Part shown: positions 1-11,563 of the stretch, in pieces
Layout of the letters: each line of letters opens with the position of its first letter
Position numbering within the stretch: position 1 is the first letter of the stretch
DNA from: a virus
Length of the DNA: 11,800 nt
Strand: one strand, 5' to 3'
Virus genome (UHGV): UHGV-0208676
Translations under genes and position numbers: made by a program
Notes under the pieces: generated by a model
Seen by the model: only the letters and a program-made list of their open reading frames with translations
What the model was told of the DNA's origin: nothing
Database searches by the model: none

Positions 1-2
1 AT

Positions 3-920
3 GCGATCACCTGGCTTCGTGATCACCTTCTGGAACTAAAAGATGGTGTTGGCGGCTGGCAAAATGCACTGGAAATCCTTGGTACATTCATCGCGGGTGT
101 CTGGGTATCCAGGGTTCTGGGGGCTTTCGGGAAAATATCAGGTTTGCCGGTCCCGCCGTGGTTAAAAGGCTGGATGGCTTATGCTGCGTATTTGTACTCT
201 GATCGCGAAAATATTGGTGCCAGTGCGAAGTCATCCTGGGATTACACGAAACAAAATATTGGAGATTCATTGCGCTGGCTTGGCATTGATACCGATTTTG
301 GTCGTAATCCTCATACCGTAAAAGGCGCAAATATTCAGTCAGATATTCCAGGTGCTGAGCCGGAACAATATGCACAGGCTACGAAACGAGGAGAACGGAA
401 TAACAATCCGGGAAACCTTAATTTTGCTGGTCAGGCAGGGGCTTCTCTTGAACGCCCGGGCGGGCGATTTGCCAGATTTGAAACTGCCTTTGATGGATTA
501 CGGGCTCTTGCTCGTCAGTTAATGCTGTACGCCGGACGGGGAATAAACAGTGTGGAGAAAATTATCTCTACCTGGGCACCTGCGTCTGATAATAACAACA
601 CAACAGCGTATATCAGGGCTGTATCGCAACGACTGGGAGTGGATCCCCGGGCTGCCCTGAATATGAGTGATCCGCAAACCATGTCAGCATTGATGAGCAG
701 CATTATCCAGCATGAGAATGGAAGAAATATCTATTCTCGAGAGCTGATTAATAAGGCTGCCGTGGCGGGAATTAGTGGCAAAGTGACAGAGGTTAACCAG
801 CAAAATACCTACCACATTTACGGTGGCGGAGATCCGCACGCTGTCGGTAATGAGGTTGCACGTCGGCAACAGTCTGCAAATGCTCAGGTCATGCGAAGTA
901 ATCAGGTGAGGGTGGGTTAG
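3..920 (+). CDS. Tail tape-measure protein, C-terminal part (5'-partial; frame is open from the window start)
   Basis: The frame of the 144..920 ORF has no stop back to base 3, so the gene continues upstream of the window. Hydrophobic stretch near the start (ILGTFIAGVWVSRVLGAF), Gly/Asn-rich segment, and position directly upstream of baseplate genes with TAGTG stop-start overlap to the next gene. Function inferred from position and composition only. Confidence 0.45.
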   Translation, partial: AITWLRDHLLELKDGVGGWQNALEILGTFIAGVWVSRVLGAFGKISGLPVPPWLKGWMAYAAYLYSDRENIGASAKSSWDYTKQNIGDSLRWLGIDTDFGRNPHTVKGANIQSDIPGAEPEQYAQATKRGERNNNPGNLNFAGQAGASLERPGGRFARFETAFDGLRALARQLMLYAGRGINSVEKIISTWAPASDNNNTTAYIRAVSQRLGVDPRAALNMSDPQTMSALMSSIIQHENGRNIYSRELINKAAVAGISGKVTEVNQQNTYHIYGGGDPHAVGNEVARRQQSANAQVMRSNQVRVG

Positions 921-1507
921 TGGATATTCTCTCTACACTTTTTCATCAGCAGAGCAGAAAAATAGGAATGATTGTTCCCAGTGTTGTTATTTCAGAGAAG
1001 CATACAGATATGCTTGAAATAACAGAGCATCCGGTAGAGGTCGGGGCCGCTGTCGCTGATCATGCCTATAAAAAACCGTCAGAAGTGGTGATGGAGGTTG
1101 GTTTCGCCGGTGGCGGCGCATTGCTGGATTTTGCCAGTAACCTGACGGCTACCAGCCTGCTCGGCCTGAGTCCTCAGCAGACGTATCAGGAGCTACTGGG
1201 TCTGCAGGAAAGCCGTATCCCCTTCGATGTGGTAACCGGTAAACGGCTGTACAGCAACATGTTGATCCGGGCGCTGGAAGTGACGACGGACAAGACAACC
1301 GAAAACGTCCTGTCCGCTGTCCTCACCCTGAGGGAGGTCATTATCTCCCGGACACAGCAGATTACCGTCGCGGATAAAACCAACATGAAGGAAGGGGCCA
1401 GCACGTCGGCGGTACAGAACAGCGGCAACAAAACCACAAAGCCTCCAGATACTTCACTGCTGAAAAGCATCACGGGTAACGTGGCGTCATTACTGGGGGG
1501 CGGCTAA
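920..1507 (+). CDS. Hypothetical phage tail/baseplate-associated protein (195 aa), GTG start
   Basis: Long ORF, GTG start overlapping the upstream stop (TAGTG) and TAATG overlap with the next gene, indicating translational coupling within a tail operon. No motif recognised. Confidence 0.5.
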   Translation: MDILSTLFHQQSRKIGMIVPSVVISEKHTDMLEITEHPVEVGAAVADHAYKKPSEVVMEVGFAGGGALLDFASNLTATSLLGLSPQQTYQELLGLQESRIPFDVVTGKRLYSNMLIRALEVTTDKTTENVLSAVLTLREVIISRTQQITVADKTNMKEGASTSAVQNSGNKTTKPPDTSLLKSITGNVASLLGGG

Positions 1508-1809
1508 TGACAATTCAGGAAATTCCGCTGACAGCGGACAACCAGCAGTTCAGCATCGTCCTGGGTGGTGTCACCTGGCGGATTAGCATCATATGGCGCG
1601 ATCTGTACTGGATTATGGACCTGCAGAACGACAGAGGGGAGCCGGTAATCTCCGGTATTCCTCTCGTCACTGGTGCTGAGCTGCTGGCGCAGTACGCCTG
1701 TATGGGGCTTGGTTTTAAGCTGGTGGTGGTCTGTGATGACAACACACAGGATTACCCCACAAAAACTGACCTGGGCGGTCGCAGCCATTTACTGGTATCA
1801 ACGGAGTAA
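1507..1809 (+). CDS. Hypothetical small phage tail protein (100 aa)
   Basis: ORF coupled to the upstream gene (TAATG) and ending 2 nt before the next start; codon usage and GC similar to flanking tail genes. Confidence 0.5.
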   Translation: MTIQEIPLTADNQQFSIVLGGVTWRISIIWRDLYWIMDLQNDRGEPVISGIPLVTGAELLAQYACMGLGFKLVVVCDDNTQDYPTKTDLGGRSHLLVSTE

Positions 1810-1811
1810 GC

Positions 1812-2876
1812 ATGTCACAGAACTGGATGAGACATTTCGAGCTGCAGCTTGTGGACGGGAACGGTCAGGGAATTGAGCTAAGTGATTTCAAAGTCACCTT
1901 TACGATCGACTGGTTCAACATCAGCAGCGCGTCCCGGGTAGGGACTATCAAAATTTATAACCTCTCGGCAGATACTGTGAACCGAATTACCGGGCAGGAG
2001 TTTTCGAAAGTGCGTCTGATTGCCGGTTACGACGGTATCGCGCCGGAGGTGTCAGCAAGCGACGTAGGGACCGTGCGGGAAGTTGACGCGGCGGACGTGG
2101 GCCAGAGAGATGGCCGCAACTACGGACTGATTTTCAGCGGTGAAATTCGCTACTCGGTCACAGGAAAAGACAGTCCGGTTGATACCTACGTCCTGATTCA
2201 GGCAGCAGATACTGATCTGGCTTTTGCTACCAGTATAACCTCACAGACGCTGGCTGCCGGTTACACGGTCGCTGATGTGAACCGTGCGCTGATGAAAGAC
2301 TTCGAAGCCAAAGGCGCGACCGAAGGCCTGACGCCTGAAATGCCTGCTACTGTATTCCCTCGGGGGCGGGTACTCTTTGGCATGACGCGGCATCTAATGG
2401 ATAACGTAGCCGGACAATGTGGCGCAACATGGCAATTCGTGGACGGTCAGCGCCAGATGGTGGCGAATAACGAATATGTTCACGAAGCGATTGTGCTCAA
2501 CAGCGCTACCGGGCTTATTGGAATGCCGCAGCAGACTATCGGTAACGGCGTAAACGTCCGCGCGCTTATTAATCCGAACATCCGGGTTAACGGGCTCATT
2601 CAGCTGGATCAGGCTTCCGTCTATCGTACCGCGTTGTCGAACAACGATATTGCGATGGCTGGTGGTCAGATCACCGACCAGAACACGGACGGAAATATCA
2701 CGCTCAGCGGCACCACATCGCAGCCTGCCAGCATCGCAACGGATGGCGTTTATATTGTGCGCGGGATTATGTACACTGGCGACACAAGGGGCCAGGCGTG
2801 GTACATGGATATGATGTGTGAAGCGCGTGGCGCGGCGGATCTTGTTTCCTCATCAGCGAGGGAAAGAGGGCTTTAA
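1812..2876 (+). CDS. Putative baseplate hub protein (Mu gp44 / P2 gpD-like) of a contractile tail
   Basis: 354-aa ORF with a GGAG RBS 5 nt upstream, placed between tape measure and spike as in Mu-type tail modules, with similar size to Mu gp44. Assignment is by synteny and size, not by a recognised motif. Confidence 0.45.
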   Translation: MSQNWMRHFELQLVDGNGQGIELSDFKVTFTIDWFNISSASRVGTIKIYNLSADTVNRITGQEFSKVRLIAGYDGIAPEVSASDVGTVREVDAADVGQRDGRNYGLIFSGEIRYSVTGKDSPVDTYVLIQAADTDLAFATSITSQTLAAGYTVADVNRALMKDFEAKGATEGLTPEMPATVFPRGRVLFGMTRHLMDNVAGQCGATWQFVDGQRQMVANNEYVHEAIVLNSATGLIGMPQQTIGNGVNVRALINPNIRVNGLIQLDQASVYRTALSNNDIAMAGGQITDQNTDGNITLSGTTSQPASIATDGVYIVRGIMYTGDTRGQAWYMDMMCEARGAADLVSSSARERGL

Positions 2877-3208
2877 TGAAACGGTTATGTTTGGCGTTAG
2901 TTATGATGGTTACTGCTCCGGCGATGGCTGCAATTCAGTGCGGCAACTACACGATGACCGGTGACGGAATGACTGTTATTAACGGTGAAACTGTCACATC
3001 ACAGAAGATAAAATTTCTGGGAAAAGATGGTGACTATTCAAACATGAAAATGGACATGGGCCTGATGCCTTCCCGTGATGGTAACAATTACGGCTTTGAG
3101 TTTGTGAAACGTAACGGAAAAGCTTTCCTGAACGTCCAGCTGCTGCAGAACAGCATGGACGCGCCGAAAATCATTGGATCTTTCCCGTGTAAAAAGGCGT
3201 TACGCTAA
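2876..3208 (+). CDS. Small secreted protein (110 aa) with N-terminal signal peptide, possible moron
   Basis: N-terminus MKRLCLALVMMVTAPAMAA has a basic n-region, hydrophobic core and AxA signal peptidase I site; two Cys (mature N-terminal region and C-terminus). TAATG overlap with the hub gene stop. GC appears lower than the hub gene. Confidence 0.55.
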   Translation: MKRLCLALVMMVTAPAMAAIQCGNYTMTGDGMTVINGETVTSQKIKFLGKDGDYSNMKMDMGLMPSRDGNNYGFEFVKRNGKAFLNVQLLQNSMDAPKIIGSFPCKKALR

Positions 3209-3245
3209 AGTTTGATGTCAATCTTCCGAGATGAGCGCTTTAAGG

Positions 3246-3274
3246 TTGACGAGATATTGTTCAAAGTTCACAAT
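3246..3274 (+). promoter_or_regulatory. Candidate sigma70-like promoter for the inserted two-gene cassette
   Basis: TTGACG at 3246-3251, 17-nt spacer, CACAAT at 3269-3274 (weak -10, repeated once as cacaatcacaat), about 30 nt upstream of the 3304 start. Sequence pattern only. Confidence 0.25.
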
Positions 3275-3303
3275 CACAATCCCTTTAGTAAGAGAAATAA
3301 TCC

Positions 3304-4077
3304 ATGGCGGCAGGCATCCCATTAGAAAAAGCGCAAAAATATATTGAACAATTCAATGCGCTTCTATTGGATAGGGAAAGTTTAGATCCCTTCACTGAAA
3401 AGAAAATTCGAGAGGAACTTTCTGTCTCTCCAACGCCTGCTACCAACATTGCACTATCTTATCTGGATGCAATAACCGGAAAGATTGAAAGCGCGTTACG
3501 TTATCTCAGGATAAGCCTAGAAGTAAACGATGTAACGTTGGCAATGCACTATCATCACATTTTAATTAATACATTTAGCTATAATGAACTCAAGGATGTC
3601 TATGTCCCGCTGGCAAAGAAGTATCGGACAAAACTCTTTAGTCACAACGCATACAGTTGGGCGTACCGTTGCGGCGAGCGTGAACAGTTAAAATTTTATA
3701 TGGAAGAGCACATTAAGCTTCTTTCTGAATCAGAAGGCAGGAGTAATGCTATGAAGCACAAAGAAGAACTCCTTGCAGAAATGGATAATTTCTATAGCGC
3801 CACACAGTGCTCGAAGGAACAGTTCCAGACCTTAGCATCCATAATCTGGGGCTTGCTAAGTGAATACAAGGCTACGACAGGTTTCGTTCAGCTTAGTGGA
3901 AGCGGTTGCTATGTTGTTGATATTAAAAATCTTGAGCCTAAAACTATTGCCAAAATGAACTTCGACTTGGCTGATAGAGTCTGCGCTGAATCTAAACTGG
4001 ATGATTGTTCCCTGTTAGCTAGATTTACCTCTCCGCGTCAGTTGCATACGGGGGTGAGCTACCATGTCGGTAACTAG
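3304..4077 (+). CDS. Hypothetical protein (257 aa), first gene of an AT-rich accessory cassette
   Basis: ORF in a visibly AT-rich segment compared with flanking baseplate genes; preceded by a 95-bp non-coding gap; 14-nt overlap with the downstream gene. No catalytic motif recognised by eye. Confidence 0.7.
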   Translation: MAAGIPLEKAQKYIEQFNALLLDRESLDPFTEKKIREELSVSPTPATNIALSYLDAITGKIESALRYLRISLEVNDVTLAMHYHHILINTFSYNELKDVYVPLAKKYRTKLFSHNAYSWAYRCGEREQLKFYMEEHIKLLSESEGRSNAMKHKEELLAEMDNFYSATQCSKEQFQTLASIIWGLLSEYKATTGFVQLSGSGCYVVDIKNLEPKTIAKMNFDLADRVCAESKLDDCSLLARFTSPRQLHTGVSYHVGN

Positions 4078-4459
4078 CAATCAGATTCTCGATACCGCTC
4101 GATTATGTCTGTCTGAAAATATTGAGAGTGGATTTCGAAGCGCTATCTCAAGGGCGTATTACAGTATGTTACATGAGTCTATTAGCTCACTTACTGCCAT
4201 ACCGCATTTTACCCATGAGCATCACAAAAATACTGTGGGTTATATGTCAACGCCCTCAGAGTGCAAATCAGAGCCATACCCGACAAATACACTGAAATCC
4301 CTAGCTTTCGTACTTCGCCAGTGGCGGGATGCTAGAAATGAAGCTGACTATGATCTGACGAATGTGACTGTTTCGAAAGAGATGGGACAGGATGCAATCG
4401 AGGCTGCTGAACTCTATTTTGAGCGCTGGGAACAGCTAAAGTCTGCTAGAGTTTCATGA
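4064..4459 (+). CDS. HEPN-like protein (131 aa), second gene of the accessory cassette
   Basis: N-terminal helix motif SAISRAYYSMLHES and C-terminal LRQWRDARNEADYD resemble conserved helices of small HEPN-domain proteins, with Tyr where the canonical Rx4-6H histidine is expected. GGGGTGAG RBS; followed directly by an intrinsic terminator. Confidence 0.65.
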   Translation: MSVTSNQILDTARLCLSENIESGFRSAISRAYYSMLHESISSLTAIPHFTHEHHKNTVGYMSTPSECKSEPYPTNTLKSLAFVLRQWRDARNEADYDLTNVTVSKEMGQDAIEAAELYFERWEQLKSARVS

Positions 4460-4476
4460 ATAAAATTAACGTTATC

Positions 4477-4500
4477 AAACCCGCTTCGGCGGGTTTTTTG
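4477..4500 (+). terminator. Rho-independent terminator after the accessory cassette
   Basis: Stem AAACCCGC (4477-4484), loop TTCG, stem GCGGGTTT (4489-4496), then a T-run to 4499; sits 18 nt after the 4459 stop and upstream of the spike RBS. Confidence 0.8.
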
Positions 4501-4518
4501 CTTTCTGGAGCCTACTAA

Positions 4519-5271
4519 ATGGCAGTATCTGACCAGACCCGCAGCGGCGACCTTGCCGAAACATTCAAATCTGAACGGGAAACAACAAAGAACCAGATCC
4601 GTGTCGCCTTGCCTGGCATTATTCAGTCATTCGATCCTGATGCGGTGACGGCAGTTGTGCAGCCTGCTATCCGTTCGGTTGAAAAGGATAATGACGGCAA
4701 CCGCATTACCAAAAATTACCCATTGCTGGTGGATGTGCCAGTGGTATTCCCGCGCGGCGGAGGATGTACGCTAACGTTCCCAGTTAAAGCCGGTGATGAA
4801 TGTTTGGTGATTTTTGCCGATCGTTGTATTGATTTCTGGTGGCAGAGTGGCGGGATACAGGAGTCGGTCGATGACAGAATGCATGATTTATCGGATGCGT
4901 TTTGTATTGTCGGTCCCCAGTCGCAGGCAAGGAAGATTAGCGGTATTAATACCAGTGCCACACAGTTGCGTAGTGATGACGGCAGCACCTATTTTGAGCT
5001 TAATCCTGATACCAGGAAAATTAAAATTGTCGCTCCAGGTGGTCTTGATGTGGTTGCCCCTCTGGCTGATTTTTCTGAGAAAGTAACCATTCATGGCCTG
5101 TTAACCTGGATGGGGGGCATGGTGGGGTCTGTGGTTTCTGGTGTGGCTTCAAAAATCACTGGTGCTGTTGAGTTCTTGGGGAGCGTGAAGGCTAACGGCA
5201 AGCCAATCGATGATACGCACACTCATGGTGGTGTTCAGCGCGGTGGAAGCAATACCGACGGAGTAAACTGA
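4519..5271 (+). CDS. Baseplate central spike protein (P2 gpV / Mu gp45 family)
   Basis: GGAG RBS 8 nt upstream; central region VVFPRGGGCTLTFPVKAGDECLVIF is typical of gpV/gp45 spike OB-fold region; C-terminus carries HTH (H-x-H) as in metal-binding spike tips; followed by W-, J- and I-like genes in canonical order. Confidence 0.8.
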   Translation: MAVSDQTRSGDLAETFKSERETTKNQIRVALPGIIQSFDPDAVTAVVQPAIRSVEKDNDGNRITKNYPLLVDVPVVFPRGGGCTLTFPVKAGDECLVIFADRCIDFWWQSGGIQESVDDRMHDLSDAFCIVGPQSQARKISGINTSATQLRSDDGSTYFELNPDTRKIKIVAPGGLDVVAPLADFSEKVTIHGLLTWMGGMVGSVVSGVASKITGAVEFLGSVKANGKPIDDTHTHGGVQRGGSNTDGVN

Positions 5272-5624
5272 TGCGATACAGACGTGAAGACGCCGATGGC
5301 GATTACACCTTTGGCAGCGGTGATGACACCTGGCTGATTAACTCACCGGAGGCCGTGGCGCAGGCGGTAAAAACGCGATTCGAATTGTGGTATGGGCAAT
5401 GGTTTCTCGACACCACCGAGGGGACTCCGTGGATCCAGTCCGTACTCGGTAAGCAGAAGCCGGAAACCTACAACCTGGCGATCCGTAAGCGCATCCTCGA
5501 AACGCAGGGCGTTAAATCAATCCTCTCTTTCAATACGACGCTGGATACCACGACCCGACGTGTCATGTTTTCCGCTGAAATCGACACTCTTTATGGAATA
5601 ACGACTGTTACATCGGAGGCGTAA
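5271..5624 (+). CDS. Baseplate wedge protein (gp25 / GPW-like, Mu gp46 position)
   Basis: 117-aa ORF with ATGA-type overlap to the spike gene, GGAG RBS; size and position between V-like and J-like genes match the gp25/W slot. Confidence 0.7.
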   Translation: MRYRREDADGDYTFGSGDDTWLINSPEAVAQAVKTRFELWYGQWFLDTTEGTPWIQSVLGKQKPETYNLAIRKRILETQGVKSILSFNTTLDTTTRRVMFSAEIDTLYGITTVTSEA

Positions 5625-6823
5625 TGGCTCTGAACCTTGATTCTCTCGGTTTATCTGCAAAGGTAACCGCAGAGGGGATCAGTGCGCCTGATTATCAGAC
5701 GATACTCAGCACCCTGATTAGCTATTTTCAGCAGATTTATGGCAGTGATGCCTACCTCGAACCGGACAGCAAAGACGGCCAGATGGTGGCTCTGATGGCG
5801 CTGGCGATTCATGATGCCAATAATACTGCGATAACTGTCTACAACTGTTTTTCACCGGCAACCGGCTATGGGGCTGCACTGACCAGTAACGTGAAAATAA
5901 ATGGTATTTCACGTAAAGGCGCGACGAACTCTACGGTTGATTTGCTTCTTACAGGAACTGCCGGAACAACCATCATTAATGGCAGCGTGAAAGATGGTAA
6001 TAATGTGATATGGCGTTTGCCTGCTTCAGTGGTGGTCGGCGTGGATGGTACAGTGATGGCGACCGCAACATGTTCCGTCAGTGGTGCAGTGGCGGCGCTG
6101 GCTGGAACTATCACTGAAATTAATACGCCAACCCGTGGCTGGGTTTCGGTAACCAATCCTGCTGCAGCTACTGTAGGCACTCCGGCAGAAACTGATGCGG
6201 AGTTACGTATCCGTCAGTCGCAAAGTGTTGCGTTGCCATCAATAACCCCATTTGAAGCACTGGATGGTGCTGTTTCTAATGTTACCGGTGTAACCCGCCA
6301 CAAACTCTATGAAAACGATACTGGTTCAGAGGACGGTAACGGGTTACCGCCACACTCTGTTGCTGTAATTGTGGATGGCGGTGATGTGACGGATATTGCT
6401 CAGGCTATCAGAGGAAATAAAGGCCAGGGGACAGCCACTCACGGTACAACATCCGTTACGGTTCCGGATAAATACGGCAATCCCCATGTAATCAAATTCT
6501 CGCGTTCCAGTGATGTGCCTGTTTATGCCCGGATTAAATTAAAAGTTTTTACGGGTTATACCTCACAGATAGGGCAGCAGATCCAGCAGGCTATTTCCGA
6601 CTATATCAATAGTCTGATGATTGGTGATTCGGTCCTTTTAAGTCGCATTTACTCACCGGCGAATCTTGGCGTGGTGAGTGGCGGGAATGCACGCTATTAC
6701 GATATTCAGGAACTGACGATTGGGAAATCCCCGGGGGCTTTGTCGTCATCAAACATTGATATCAGATACAACGAATCTGCGTCCTGTACCCCGGAAAATA
6801 TCGTTATAACGGTGGAGTCATGA
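5624..6823 (+). CDS. Baseplate J-like protein (P2 gpJ / Mu gp47 family)
   Basis: 399-aa ORF with GGAGG RBS 5 nt upstream; size and position after the gp25-like gene and before an I-like gene; Gly/Thr/Val-rich central region typical of J-family wedge proteins. Confidence 0.75.
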   Translation: MALNLDSLGLSAKVTAEGISAPDYQTILSTLISYFQQIYGSDAYLEPDSKDGQMVALMALAIHDANNTAITVYNCFSPATGYGAALTSNVKINGISRKGATNSTVDLLLTGTAGTTIINGSVKDGNNVIWRLPASVVVGVDGTVMATATCSVSGAVAALAGTITEINTPTRGWVSVTNPAAATVGTPAETDAELRIRQSQSVALPSITPFEALDGAVSNVTGVTRHKLYENDTGSEDGNGLPPHSVAVIVDGGDVTDIAQAIRGNKGQGTATHGTTSVTVPDKYGNPHVIKFSRSSDVPVYARIKLKVFTGYTSQIGQQIQQAISDYINSLMIGDSVLLSRIYSPANLGVVSGGNARYYDIQELTIGKSPGALSSSNIDIRYNESASCTPENIVITVES

Positions 6824-7500
6824 GCAAATACACCGAACTAATCACGAACTACCACGCCACCAAACCTAAATTTCTTGCGCATGTTGATCTGATGACCCGG
6901 CCGCTTATTGATGTTGCGGCGGCCACCAGAGGGTTGATTACTGCATTTGATATTGACTCCGCGGTTGGTGTGCAACTTGACATTCTTGGATTGTGGATCG
7001 GACGTAGCCGTGTTGTCAGCCAGCCTATCTCAGGTGTCTATTTCAGCTGGGATACCGACGGGCTTGGATATGATCAGGGTGTATGGCAGGGGCCATACGA
7101 TCCTGATTCCGGATACATGTACCTCAGCGATGAAACTTATCGTGTCATCCTTAAAGCGAAGATTGCGATTAATAACTGGGACGGACGGAATGATTCGCTT
7201 CCGGTAATTCTTGACGCGGCAACAGCAGGATCCGGGCTGCGAATGCAGATAGTCGATAACCAGGACATGACGATATCGGTCTGGGTCTTTCCTGATACTG
7301 ATATTTCAGATGTATCGCGTGAGTTAATTGCGGCAATTAAACAGGGGTATCTAACAGTAAAAGCCGCCGGGGTATGGGCGGGGGGCATTGAAACACCTTC
7401 GGTGGAAACTCCATCGGAAGGCTCTAAATTTTTTGGTTTTGATATGGATAACGAATTCATCAGTGGTTTTGATGTAGGGGCATGGGGAGTATTACTCTGA
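6820..7500 (+). CDS. Baseplate wedge / tail-fibre attachment protein (P2 gpI-like, Mu gp48 / YmfQ-like position)
   Basis: 226-aa ORF overlapping the J-like stop by 4 nt (ATGA) and overlapping the fibre start (TGATG at 7498-7502); canonical position between J and the fibre. Confidence 0.7.
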   Translation: MSKYTELITNYHATKPKFLAHVDLMTRPLIDVAAATRGLITAFDIDSAVGVQLDILGLWIGRSRVVSQPISGVYFSWDTDGLGYDQGVWQGPYDPDSGYMYLSDETYRVILKAKIAINNWDGRNDSLPVILDAATAGSGLRMQIVDNQDMTISVWVFPDTDISDVSRELIAAIKQGYLTVKAAGVWAGGIETPSVETPSEGSKFFGFDMDNEFISGFDVGAWGVLL

Positions 7501-9920
7501 TGGCAAAAAATGACTTTAAAGCATTCGCAACGGGTAAAAATGCCAATGTTATGTCGCAGGAGGAATGGGAAGCGTTGCCTGCGCTTTTATCCGGATTTAC
7601 AGCAGGGAAAGCATCCAGTGCGCAAGTCAATAAGGTTATTCGGCAGGCCAGCTTTATTGCTGCAGCTCTGGCCCAGTTTGTAAGTGACAAAACGCAACGG
7701 GATGTGCTTGATAATGGTGATCTGCCCGGTTTTGTTGAATTGCTGGGATCGGGGTTTGCTGTTGAATACCTGAGCCGCAAGAATCCGTTTGGCGATATCA
7801 AATCGGATGGCACGGTAGAACGCGCTCTTGAAAATCTGGGGTTACAGGATGTAAAAGCTGGTTCATTGAACAATCTGTACACTAACCATTCCCGTAGTGT
7901 CTTAATGGAATTGCCGTTATTATTCCCAGACTACGATACAGTGCTGGCTGCTCAGTCTGGTGCGGAATATATGTATCCACAGGGATTTGTGGTGACAGGA
8001 GAAAAAATCTATCTGAGTTATACCGTTGAGCCAAAGCAGACACGGAACGTTATAGTTCAGTACACAACATCCGGCGAATATGAGGGATATTATTATGTCG
8101 ATAATGGAGGTCGTGGCGTTGTCAGCGAAGGCCTTGTGGTGACAACGGATTACGGTGGATTACGTTTGTTCATGTCAGGAGAAAATGGATTACTGAAACA
8201 GTTTTCGCTTGATGGGGCAATTTCTGGTTCAGTATTGCCGTTAATTGATGAACATGACGTCGGTGTTTACAACCAGTTCAGCTATCGTAAAAACCGCTGG
8301 GTGGTTGAACAGTCAGCGCCGGAAGTGGGAGGCCTGATCACCCGCACAGTATTTGCGGTGTATGATTTTCAGTTTCGTCGGACGGGGACATTCACATTAC
8401 CGTTGCATGATTCCGGATATATCACGGAAAGCACAGACAGCTATGCAAGACGCTTCACAAAACGTCAGGGAATTGCTGTGGGAGACGATTATATTGCCTG
8501 TTCTTATGGTGGCTATTTTAATACCGGGGCATCAGCCGGATTTAACCAGTTTCAGGGGGTTAAGGTCTTTTCTCCGGATGGAGTAAAGCTGCAGGAATCC
8601 ATTCTTCATCCCCAAAAAATGATAGATGTGCTTACCAGCCAGGGTTTTACACCTTCGCGCATTGAGAACGAAGGAATTTGTATTTCTGACGACGGCGGCA
8701 GTATATATTCGCTTTATATCTTTCTGGAGCGTGGGTTACCACAGGCTTATCAGAAAGGAATTGTTCTGATGAAAGAGTTCAGTACTGGCAGAGATGCTAT
8801 TGATTTTCGTCAGGCAGCCTGGTTGTACACGGGGTTTGATGTGTCTCATGCCAGTATTGGAACATTTCCCCGTAGTGCCCAGGGGTTGGTAAATCCGGTG
8901 CTGGGGACTGTATTCACATCACTGTCTGAAATTCTGGCATATATGCGCTCTGTGAGTCAGAAATGGTTTTGTCTGCATACAACCACGACACCGATTAAAG
9001 ATCTGAGTGGAAATGATATTCCTGCTGACAATTATGTGTTCATCAAGAATGCTAATAACCAGACATTCTATATAACGCAGGAGTCAGCTGAAGGTGGAAT
9101 AAAATATAAAGCTGTCACCACAGGCAGCGGAGAATATGGTTTTCAGCGACAAAGAGAGGCAACCTGGTCCAATGTTATCACCATCGCACAAAAGAGCGAT
9201 GGTGAGGACCAGTTTAATCGTATTGTTGCCGCATCGAAAAGTGGTTCAGGTAACAATCAGGATAAAATACTGGTAGTTGACCAGCAGGCATCAGAGGGGA
9301 ATAACACACTGATAATTGGCGGTGCTTCATCTGTGTTCAGGTCAGCGACAGTGATTGATTTTGCAACGAATCAGGATGCAAATGCCACTGGAGGAGAAAA
9401 AAGATGGCGCATAGATTCATCAGGAAATCTCCGCCCTTATACAGATAATACGTATTCGATCGGTTATGCCTCATGGCGACCCGCACAGGTTTATGCAGCT
9501 ACAGGAAGTATCAGTACATCAGACCGGACTCGTAAACAGGACGAAACAATTCTGTCGGATGCAGAAAAAAGGGTTGCCAGAAAGTTGCTCGGGTATATCT
9601 GTCGGTTCCGTTTCAGGGATGCTGTGTCCAGCAAAGGGAATGCTGCCAGATGGCATGTAGGAGTGATTGCCCAGGACGTACAGAAGGTATTCTCTGAGGA
9701 AGGGCTGGATGCTTTTGATTACGGTATTTTGTGTCGTGATGAATATCCGGCGGAATATGAAGTGGTTTACGGGACTCGTATGGAGCTTGGTCCTGATGGA
9801 CTCCTTGCAATGGAAGAATACGATACCGGAGAGCGTAAGCTGGTCAGGGAGGCTGGCGAAATAATGTCTGTAAGGAATGATGAGCTGCATTATTTCATGT
9901 TGGCATCGCTGGCCAGTTAA
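7500..9920 (+). CDS. Tail fibre / tailspike protein with C-terminal intramolecular chaperone (peptidase S74-like) domain
   Basis: Start placed at ATG 7500 (GGGGAG RBS 10 nt upstream, TGATG coupling) rather than the ORF-track 7482. Conserved fibre N-terminal anchor (FATGKNANVMSQEEWEALP...KVIRQASFIAAALAQFV). C-terminal 133 aa (9519-9917) has S-D-x3-K (STSDRTRK) and GVIAQDVQKVF motifs typical of auto-cleaving chaperone domains. Confidence 0.75.
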   Translation: MAKNDFKAFATGKNANVMSQEEWEALPALLSGFTAGKASSAQVNKVIRQASFIAAALAQFVSDKTQRDVLDNGDLPGFVELLGSGFAVEYLSRKNPFGDIKSDGTVERALENLGLQDVKAGSLNNLYTNHSRSVLMELPLLFPDYDTVLAAQSGAEYMYPQGFVVTGEKIYLSYTVEPKQTRNVIVQYTTSGEYEGYYYVDNGGRGVVSEGLVVTTDYGGLRLFMSGENGLLKQFSLDGAISGSVLPLIDEHDVGVYNQFSYRKNRWVVEQSAPEVGGLITRTVFAVYDFQFRRTGTFTLPLHDSGYITESTDSYARRFTKRQGIAVGDDYIACSYGGYFNTGASAGFNQFQGVKVFSPDGVKLQESILHPQKMIDVLTSQGFTPSRIENEGICISDDGGSIYSLYIFLERGLPQAYQKGIVLMKEFSTGRDAIDFRQAAWLYTGFDVSHASIGTFPRSAQGLVNPVLGTVFTSLSEILAYMRSVSQKWFCLHTTTTPIKDLSGNDIPADNYVFIKNANNQTFYITQESAEGGIKYKAVTTGSGEYGFQRQREATWSNVITIAQKSDGEDQFNRIVAASKSGSGNNQDKILVVDQQASEGNNTLIIGGASSVFRSATVIDFATNQDANATGGEKRWRIDSSGNLRPYTDNTYSIGYASWRPAQVYAATGSISTSDRTRKQDETILSDAEKRVARKLLGYICRFRFRDAVSSKGNAARWHVGVIAQDVQKVFSEEGLDAFDYGILCRDEYPAEYEVVYGTRMELGPDGLLAMEEYDTGERKLVREAGEIMSVRNDELHYFMLASLAS

Positions 9921-9928
9921 TAATATTA

Positions 9929-9957
9929 ATGTAAGGAGTGATACAAGCTCCTTACAT
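9929..9957. repeat. Perfect 10-bp inverted repeat (hairpin) just downstream of the tail-fibre stop
   Basis: ATGTAAGGAG (9929-9938) and CTCCTTACAT (9948-9957) separated by a 9-nt loop; no T-run follows, so not a canonical intrinsic terminator. Confidence 0.5.
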
Positions 9958-10115
9958 CATGCATTTATGCGATTGTGCGTTATCCCATTGTTTGTTGCTG
10001 AGAGTGAAACACCGGAAACATACTGGGTGGATTGAAATTTTCGGGCGTGGCAAGCGTATGAATATGCCGTGGTGGGGCGGTTTTGATCCGCGCGCGTGCG
10101 ATGTGGCAAGCCTGA

Positions 10116-10442
10116 TGGATTTTGCTGCGCCAGCGTGGCGTGAATTTCCGAAGCCTGACTGACAGTATTGATACCAGTACCCCAATGGGCCGTTTCTTTT
10201 TTCATGTGATGGGTGCCCTGGCTGAAATGGAGCGTGAACTGATTGTTGAACGAACAAAAGCTGGACTGGAAGCTGCTCGCGCACAGGGACGAATTGGCGG
10301 TCGCCGTCCCAAACTTTCACCAGAACAATGGGCACAGGCCGGACGATTAATTACATCAGGAGTTCCTCGCCAGAAGGTGGCGATCATCTATGATGTTGGC
10401 GTATCGACTTTGTATAAGAAGTTTCCGGTCGGAGATAAATGA
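10116..10442 (+). pseudogene. DNA invertase (Pin/Gin/Hin serine recombinase family) remnant, C-terminal part only
   Basis: Translation VNFRSLTDSIDTSTPMGRFFFHVMGALAEMERELIVERTKAGLEAARAQGRIGGRRPKLSPEQWAQAGRL...STLYKK matches the C-terminal half of Pin/Gin-type invertases including the HTH region. The frame hits an in-frame TGA at 10113-10115 and the upstream translation has no invertase-like sequence, so the N-terminal catalytic Ser region is absent. The ORF-track start at 10122 is a TTG. Confidence 0.8.
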
Positions 10443-10740
10443 AACCGCAGCACGTCGTATGCAAGAACGTGCCACGGCTGGCTGATGGACGTTCGATAGC
10501 GCGAGTTTGAATGAAAATCAGCCGGAGATGATTTTACATAATTGCTACGGAATTATTCAATACAGGGATTGCTTGTGTCTGCATGGATTGACCTGAAATA
10601 GTCCCGAAAATTTCTCTAAAAAACTCGAAAACAATGGTAACTAATTGAATGTATTAATATGCAATGGTACGTGTTTGGGATTAAAAGATGAACGTGATTT
10701 TGTTTAACACATTAATTTTAAATGATTTTCTTGTTTGTTG

Positions 10741-10772
10741 ACGAAAACAGGAATCGTGTTCGGTCTCTTTTT
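10741..10772 (+). ncRNA. sdsR: Fragment resembling the 3' terminator hairpin of sRNA SdsR (RyeB); possible prophage attachment-site duplicate
   Basis: CGAAAACAGGAATCGTGTTCGGTCTCTTTTT resembles, from memory, the SdsR 3' end (CGAAUACAGGAAUCGUAUUCGGUCUCUUUUU) with a few mismatches. Sequence just upstream does not resemble the SdsR 5' part as I recall it. In E. coli K-12 the sdsR/ryeA locus lies next to pphA. Confidence 0.4.
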
Positions 10773-10906
10773 ATCTGTTAAAAGCCAGAAGCATTCCCTT
10801 CGCTGACTTTATAGTCAACCATAACACACACTCTACTGTCTGAGTCCAGCGTTTTTTAACATTCTTGTTAAGATTATGTGATCTTTAGCGCGGGAGGAAA
10901 ATATTG

Positions 10907-11563
10907 ATGAAACAGCCTGCGCCCGTTTATCAGAGAATTGCGGGTCATCAATGGCGACATATCTGGCTTTCAGGCGATATACACGGTTGTCTTGAGCAGT
11001 TGCGCCGCAAATTATGGCATTGTCGTTTTGATCCGTGGCGAGATTTACTTATCTCAGTGGGAGACGTTATCGATCGTGGGCCGCAAAGTTTACGTTGCCT
11101 GCAGTTACTGGAACAACATTGGGTTCGTGCGGTAAGAGGCAATCATGAACAGATGGCGATGGATGCGCTGGCATCCCGGCAGATGTCTTTATGGTTGATA
11201 AATGGCGGCGACTGGTTTATTGCGCTGGCAGATAATCAACAGAAACAAGCGAAAACGGCGCTGGAAAAATGTCAGCATTTGCCCTTTATTCTTGAATTAC
11301 ACAGTCGCACCGGCAAACATGTTATTGCTCATGCCGATTATCCAGATGATGTCTATGAATGGCAAAAGGACGTCGATTTGCATCAGGTCTTGTGGAGCCG
11401 CTCGCGATTAGGTGAACGCCAAAAAGGGCAGGGAATTGCAGGTGCTGATCATTTCTGGTTTGGTCATACACCTTTGCGCCATCGCGTGGATATTGGCAAC
11501 CTGCATTATATTGATACCGGTGCTGTCTTTGGGGGAGAACTGACTCTTGTGCAATTGCAATAA
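10907..11563 (+). CDS. pphA: Serine/threonine protein phosphatase 1 (PP1/lambda-phosphatase-like metallophosphatase)
   Basis: Motifs GDIHG, GDVIDRG and GNHE present; 218 aa from ATG 10907 (GGAGG RBS about 9 nt upstream; the ORF-track 10904 is a TTG one codon earlier). N-terminus MKQPAPVYQRIAGHQWRHIWLSGDIHGC matches my recollection of E. coli PrpA; convergent with a yebW-like gene as in K-12. Confidence 0.85.
   Translation: MKQPAPVYQRIAGHQWRHIWLSGDIHGCLEQLRRKLWHCRFDPWRDLLISVGDVIDRGPQSLRCLQLLEQHWVRAVRGNHEQMAMDALASRQMSLWLINGGDWFIALADNQQKQAKTALEKCQHLPFILELHSRTGKHVIAHADYPDDVYEWQKDVDLHQVLWSRSRLGERQKGQGIAGADHFWFGHTPLRHRVDIGNLHYIDTGAVFGGELTLVQLQ

Follow-up and report, generated by a model that had tools for sequence, protein, structure and literature searches.

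An attR junction beside pphA, very probably formed by integration of a lambdoid prophage into the 3' end of the small RNA gene sdsR

The window analyzed here, a stretch of 11,800 nucleotides from the virus genome UHGV-0208676, contains at positions 10443-10903 what is very probably the attR site of a lambdoid prophage, integrated into the 3' end of the small RNA gene sdsR (ryeB) by tyrosine-integrase site-specific recombination. The prophage combines a Rac-like early region with contractile (myovirus-type) tail and baseplate genes. The original prediction had suggested that prophage and host meet here at an attachment core within the sdsR/ryeA locus, and the BLAST comparison with E. coli bears this out, placing the change from host to phage sequence at the 3' end of sdsR. 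Phage attachment at the ryeB/sdsR 3' end is already known from Salmonella; the window presents an E. coli example of it and not a discovery of the site.

Host and phage sequence on the two sides of the junction

In the BLAST comparison, positions 10742-10903 are present in every complete E. coli genome (5426/5426), while positions 10443-10741 are found in just 228. Pairwise alignment with K-12 gives exact identity from position 10747 rightward to pphA, with a sole SNP at 10796. Judged from these alignments, the prophage boundary lies at about 10747, and the segment 10443-10746 is phage P arm and not host spacer. The position implied by the original prediction, which let the junction begin at 10443, has to be shifted rightward, exact K-12 identity starting only at about 10747. 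On the host side, the sdsR-pphA spacer (B' side, 10773-10906), which is the K-12 sequence except for the SNP and is likewise present in 5426 of 5426 genomes, leads into pphA (10907-11563, plus strand). This gene encodes the host serine/threonine protein phosphatase, with a Pfam Metallophos domain and RefSeq homologues in DH1, C25 and FDAARGOS_946, and is followed in the window by yebW, in the same order as in K-12.

Reciprocal BLAST of the uninterrupted K-12 sdsR-pphA region against the complete E. coli genomes found the region intact in 5190 of the 5426, which supply the unoccupied attB for an empty-site comparison, and split in 236. About 4% of complete E. coli genomes have the sdsR site filled, nearly always by an element with the same P arm. 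The break falls at the identical nucleotide in 228 E. coli genomes and in more than 30 viral contigs; among IMG/VR sequences, more than 30 contigs carry the same junction of phage arm and host flank, and a few of the flanks are unlike the E. coli spacer. The best match to the window among complete E. coli genomes covers 84% of it at 97% identity, and none of these genomes spans the whole window.

The interval had been described as an AT-rich non-coding gap between an invertase remnant and pphA, a description with which both composition and coding content agree: the GC fraction is 0.31-0.36 over 10500-10900 against about 0.5 in the flanks, and besides the start of pphA no ORF longer than 31 aa and no meaningful-looking small ORF was found within 10443-10903. 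The remnant itself (10122-10442, plus strand, 106 aa) is the C-terminal part of a Pin/Gin-type serine invertase, matching positions 89-144 of 145 of the Pfam Resolvase model together with HTH_7, and no further phage coding sequence stands between it and the att region. The frame upstream of it is full of stop codons, and homology to the intact pinE of FDAARGOS_946 starts only at about 10110-10165. As only a remnant of the invertase is left, this copy of the prophage may be defective, or it may be truncated at its left end.

The neighbouring tail-fibre region is mosaic. A tail-fibre ORF of 812 aa, with a Peptidase_S74 chaperone domain at its C-terminus, occupies 7482-9920 at the place of the invertible tail-fibre segment and intact pinE of FDAARGOS_946; of the invertase, the segment 7482-10442 keeps only the C-terminal half. 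Positions 1-10486 of the window occur at other chromosomal loci in many genomes, which shows that phages with different att systems swap the tail module.

Directly to the right of the boundary, positions 10747-10772 (plus strand) match the last 26 nt of K-12 sdsR exactly and comprise the loop, the 3' stem arm and the T-run of its terminator. The sequence at 10747-10773, ACAGGAATCGTGTTCGGTCTCTTTTTA, has a single copy in the window, is the exact K-12 sdsR 3' end and has 0 matches in shuffled windows. To the left of 10747 the likeness is only degenerate (GAC-GAAA in the window versus GACCGAAT in K-12), and upstream of GAC-GAAA the alignment with K-12 finds no counterpart of the sdsR body. The fragment has no sdsR promoter, no seed region and no 5' stem arm.

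Rfam gives the same picture. At gathering thresholds it reports nothing in the whole window, and only sub-threshold fragments appear at permissive E-values: SdsR_RyeB (RF00111) scores 20.4 bits at attR, derived from the 3' 26 nt, against a gathering score of 38, and SraC_RyeA (RF00101) reaches 24.4 bits in the window, its gathering score being 37. Measured against an SdsR_RyeB gene, with its full-length match, seed region and terminator, the attR fragment falls short; so does the locus as a SraC/RyeA gene, for which the promoter and the segment up to the core are kept and the antisense body is replaced by the P arm. That the upstream part of the sRNA is missing here, as had been recognized from the sequence, is thus upheld by both the unalignable sdsR body and the low SdsR_RyeB score. 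This settles the annotation: no sdsR gene lies beside pphA, and the real sdsR should be looked for at the far end of the prophage.

The original prediction had also described an SdsR-like hairpin followed by a T-run. The exact match at 10747-10772 confirms the resemblance to sdsR, but the hairpin stem is broken at attR, where one base has been lost and one mismatch gained. The hybrid hairpin has an MFE of -5.7 kcal/mol (z = +0.43), no better than shuffled sequence, versus -15.8 kcal/mol (z = -3.1) for the native sdsR terminator. A terminator scan of 10300-11000 called none, in agreement with the broken fold, and the attR hairpin is predicted to be a disrupted terminator at which transcription would not be expected to end. 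These properties weigh on the reading in which the attR fragment is functional, either as a terminator insulating pphA from phage late transcription or as a short SdsR-like sRNA. Its intact T-run and 3' stem arm, and its position between plus-strand phage genes and pphA, are what such a role would call for; the predicted instability of the hybrid stem, the negative scan, the missing sdsR promoter and seed region and the sub-threshold Rfam score nevertheless make a function of this kind very unlikely.

Attachment sites of related lysogens and of a free phage

In C25, yebY/sdsR and pphA are separated by a prophage of about 42 kb, which has a tyrosine integrase and an excisionase at its yebY side. 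Its early region is Rac-like (recET, kilR, ralR, ydaT); it also carries a lysis cassette of the lambda type and a baseplate module for a contractile tail that resembles the one in the window. FDAARGOS_946 is organized alike, with an intact prophage of about 42 kb, an intact pinE and an invertible tail-fibre segment. At the attL of both, Rfam detects sdsR in full length at 118.1 bits and the RyeA body at about 180 bits, and the elements follow each other in the order full sdsR, core, about 130 bp of phage DNA (P' arm) and end of int. The sdsR at attL, with its 3' end supplied by the phage, has a perfect 11-bp stem and a longer T-run, with a folding energy of -15.8 kcal/mol. The Rfam SraC_RyeA model begins exactly at the attL-type sequence AAUUAAAAAAAGACCG.

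A search of species-representative genomes with Int returned just two close relatives, one locus in Shigella flexneri and one in E. coli, both with an Int 94% identical and with sdsR about 130 bp from int; the breadth of the family was judged from the IMG/VR junctions with non-E. coli flanks. Across the four loci examined, all from related genomes, int and xis are located about 130 bp from sdsR in each (4/4). The core is present as a direct repeat at both ends of the prophage in the related lysogens C25 and FDAARGOS_946; the window, which ends short of the other boundary of its own prophage, holds one core copy. The proposal that the prophage uses an sRNA gene as its integration site is well supported by what the far end of these lysogens contains, namely the repeated core, a full sdsR and xis-int. 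The two outcomes that would have spoken against the original prediction did not occur, since no full-length sdsR lies beside pphA and the far end of the related lysogens shares the core.

The corresponding free-phage site is found in the record PP818812.1, where P arm, core and P' arm are contiguous at 45969-46434 and are followed by int, forming an uninterrupted attP; it is the only phage record with this attP and int. The P arm of PP818812.1 follows the last tail gene and shares 87% identity with window positions 10431-10757, and the Int of this phage is 97.8% identical to that of C25. The record (our locus L004, 45969-47508) bears the label 'Actinobacillus phage vB_Apl-pPE4'. The host given in this label appears doubtful, because the core is an enterobacterial sdsR 3' end and the Int is 97.8% identical to an E. 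coli prophage Int.

Six sequences (attB, attP, two attL and two attR) were aligned, with attP taken as PP818812.1-like and attB as K-12-like. attP and attB differ just to the left of ACAGGAATCGT and at two positions to its right, the alleles there being A and T in attP but G and C in attB. attL joins the host left arm to the phage alleles A and T, and attR, as represented by the window, joins the phage left arm to the host-type alleles G10758 and C10767, so that the alignment displays the reciprocal pattern of attB x attP giving attL and attR. By these diagnostic positions, strand exchange falls within 10747-10757, the 11-bp block ACAGGAATCGT over which attP and attB are identical; the pattern of the diagnostic SNPs is repeated in more than 30 IMG/VR junctions. 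Inverted arms flanking a short central block are the usual overlap geometry between two core-type Int sites, and the 7-nt loop of the sdsR terminator, AGGAATC (10749-10755), which lies between inverted stem arms, is the probable overlap region.

Some variation was observed around this point. The attL of E. coli ECMA0423 (L103, 3700-3720) has the host-type G at the first diagnostic position, yet continues with phage flank, and the same attL as well as the attR of C25 (L003, 46775-46800) contain an extra T in the stem (TTCGGTTCT). Either attP polymorphism or some play in the exchange point would account for the G in L103 and the extra T.

The distribution of alleles also bears on the origin of the fragment beside pphA, which the original prediction had taken for a phage-carried partial duplicate of the sdsR 3' end and not for the displaced host copy. 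attP does hold a copy of the terminator region, and the left arm at 10740-10746, which the att alignment identifies as the phage's imperfect copy of the sdsR terminator left arm, is phage-derived. The duplicate reading nonetheless has to be reversed and is, in our estimation, highly improbable: G10758 and C10767 are host alleles and are followed by host spacer, the phage alleles are those found at attL, and a phage origin applies to only about 7 of the 33 nt of hairpin plus tail. As far as the aligned alleles can tell, the fragment from the exchange point rightward is the original host sdsR 3' end, with the phage left arm fused to its left. The analogy with e14 at icd, which had been drawn from the supposed duplicate, survives in that a phage-borne copy completes the target gene; it fails in that this copy sits at attL and not beside pphA.

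Decay of sdsR in place was rejected on the strength of the att alignment, and the broader account, in which the native gene decayed or was partly deleted by non-specific (illegitimate or homologous) insertion of a tail-fibre and invertase cassette with no att junction, can point to the nearby rearrangements seen in the invertase remnant and the mosaic tail-fibre region but retains next to no probability in view of a break nucleotide that is the same throughout 228 genomes of E. coli and over 30 contigs of viruses, of the 300 bp left of the break being contiguous with core, P' arm and int in the free phage, and of the full sdsR and repeated core at the far end of related lysogens. On that account one would look for breaks that vary from strain to strain, or for a core that has no copy linked to an integrase; neither is what the sequences show.

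Integrase, arm sites and relation to known systems

By its sequence, the integrase of the attR-forming prophage family is assigned to the lambda/HK022 family: it features the domains Phage_integrase, Phage_int_M and lambda Arm-DNA-bind_1, shares about 41% identity with HK022 Int and is encoded adjacent to an Exc-type excisionase. The motif CYCGAAWWW has two copies in the P arm of attP and three in its P' arm, always in the same orientation, and these copies make up five of the six matches in the 7.5-kb locus, for which shuffled sequences give an expectation of 1.4; in the window alone the motif is not enriched (3 matches vs 1.75 expected). Two P-arm and three P'-arm repeats are the same arrangement as in lambda. 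Within the window, the P arm between 10524 and 10746 is AT-rich and non-coding, is 87% identical to the attP arm of PP818812.1 and contains two candidate arm-type Int sites that follow the motif, CCCGAAAAT at 10603-10611 and, with one mismatch, CTCGAAAAC at 10625-10633.

The far end of the P arm is formed by a conserved two-hairpin module (10443-10523, minus strand), with hairpin 1 at 10445-10477 and hairpin 2 at 10480-10523. The module is common to about 70 phage records, among them Stx phages, phiP27 and Rac-SA53, and to 94 IMG/VR contigs, and in three att systems it takes the same place, directly after the last tail gene, 220-300 bp from the core and opposite int. Stem 1 is fully paired on the minus strand only, where the A-C oppositions of the plus strand become G-U pairs, and its variants are compensatory (ccgca/tgcgg, ctgcg/cgcag, ccgta/tacgg). 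On the minus strand it is followed by an imperfect U-rich tract. The hairpin of PP818812.1 reaches -31 kcal/mol (z = -4.9) and is weaker in the window. A simple terminator scan did not call the two-hairpin module, and the Rfam match there, to CssrB, has 28 bits, far under the gathering score of 76. As a hypothesis, we propose the module as a candidate tI/sib-like terminator for int-sense (and ryeA-sense) transcripts.

In the integration mechanism that these elements suggest, attP brings an imperfect copy of about 37 bp of the sdsR terminator, Int would bind the five arm-type repeats (two in P, three in P') and the two stem arms as core sites, and strands would be exchanged in or beside the 7-nt loop AGGAATC. 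Of the two products, attL beside yebY has a complete sdsR, whose perfect terminator comes from the phage, and then int and xis; in attR beside pphA, the site seen in the window, the P arm of the phage is joined to the final 26 nt of the host's original sdsR. For the prophage of the window, attL would accordingly be expected to read yebY, full sdsR, the phage-type core ACAGGAATCGT(A)TTCGGTCT(T)TTTTTAATTG, three CYCGAAWTT repeats and int/xis.

The system resembles lambda and HK022 in its tyrosine integrase with N-terminal arm-binding domain, in the Exc-type excisionase and in an int that is convergent on the core, and it resembles lambda in having a hairpin 200-300 bp beyond the core, where lambda has tI/sib. 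It differs from them in its core and arm sequences and in an attB that lies within an sRNA terminator and not between gal and bio. Arm-site binding, IHF and Xis sites and sib-like retroregulation are properties of lambda that we only infer for this phage. With e14 at icd and with the integrators at tRNA and tmRNA 3' ends it shares a surrogate 3' end that restores the target and a displaced remnant at the other junction, as well as a symmetric stem-loop as core. In contrast to those cases, the phage targets a regulatory sRNA that an antisense gene overlaps, and sdsR is kept but parted from the ryeA promoter and from the downstream pphA.

The closest precedent comes from Salmonella, where PhiW104 is described as integrating in the last 23 bp of ryeB and the ryeA/ryeB locus as having been used repeatedly by foreign DNA (Balbontin et al., 2008, J Bacteriol 190:4075, as cited in PMC7380047 and PMC3603311). 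In Citrobacter, a prophage carries the name 'Cfr111.52.RyeB' in an integrative-element naming scheme (PMC10111431). The likeness to PhiW104, as that phage is presented in PMC7380047, extends to an att site in the last ~23 bp of ryeB that is internal to the antisense gene ryeA, and to a lysogeny in which sdsR stays whole and ryeA is altered. The present case differs in its E. coli host, Rac-like early region and myovirus-type tail.

A further Salmonella element, with a 73% identical Int, has the same core and conserves the same three P' arm repeats. In its record, OK490361.1 (L007, Salmonella ZC-S1_prp), the core, three CTCGAAATT repeats and fragments of the 73% identical integrase are found beside a sopE-type gene, and the element probably remains from one of the insertions at the ryeB site that have been described in Salmonella. 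Three IMG/VR contigs (L012, L044 and L079) have the same P arm and core and host flanks reading TTTTTATCTATAAAGCC..., versus TTTTTATCTGTTAAAAGCC in the E. coli spacer. The dissimilarity of these flanks suggests that sdsR serves the phage family as a target outside E. coli as well.

Consequences for sdsR, ryeA and pphA

In K-12, SdsR, RyeA and pphA form a coupled unit, in which pphA owes most of its transcription to read-through from the sdsR promoter and sdsR is subject to interference from ryeA transcription (PMC6610125). The primer used for ryeA promoter mutagenesis by Choi et al. (2019; PMC6610125) matches the window exactly at 10801-10840, which places the -10 element of ryeA, TATGGT, at 10823-10818 on the minus strand. 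The ryeA promoter is intact and now faces the phage P arm. In a lysogen, sdsR is about 42 kb away from the ryeA promoter and from pphA, so that both couplings should be lost. In Salmonella, altered expression of ryeA and ryeB upon PhiW104 lysogeny is mentioned in PMC7380047.

In the P' arm adjoining the core, we observed a promoter-like sequence, TTTGCA-16-TACAAT, on the minus strand (L003, the C25 locus, 4745-4718; L004, the PP818812.1 locus, 6370-6343). It points into sdsR in the antisense direction at attL and could substitute for the ryeA promoter.

A rewiring of the SdsR/RyeA/pphA circuit by lysogeny in about 4% of E. coli strains is a tentative proposal, which we consider possible but rather unlikely as a whole, and we infer all four of its steps. 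First, the ryeA promoter at attR would produce a chimeric RNA that extends about 370 nt into the phage arm, up to the tI-like hairpin, and keeps only 26 nt of complementarity to SdsR. Second, the sdsR at attL would be freed from transcriptional interference by RyeA and from its antisense control. Third, pphA would be deprived of its main promoter, the read-through from sdsR. Fourth, int-sense transcripts, or transcripts from the P' arm promoter, would run antisense through sdsR, and the host sRNA could then act on the int mRNA in the manner of lambda sib. With the junction very probably being an attR of a known kind, the interest that remains is regulatory: the insertion parts a coupled unit in a sizeable minority of strains.
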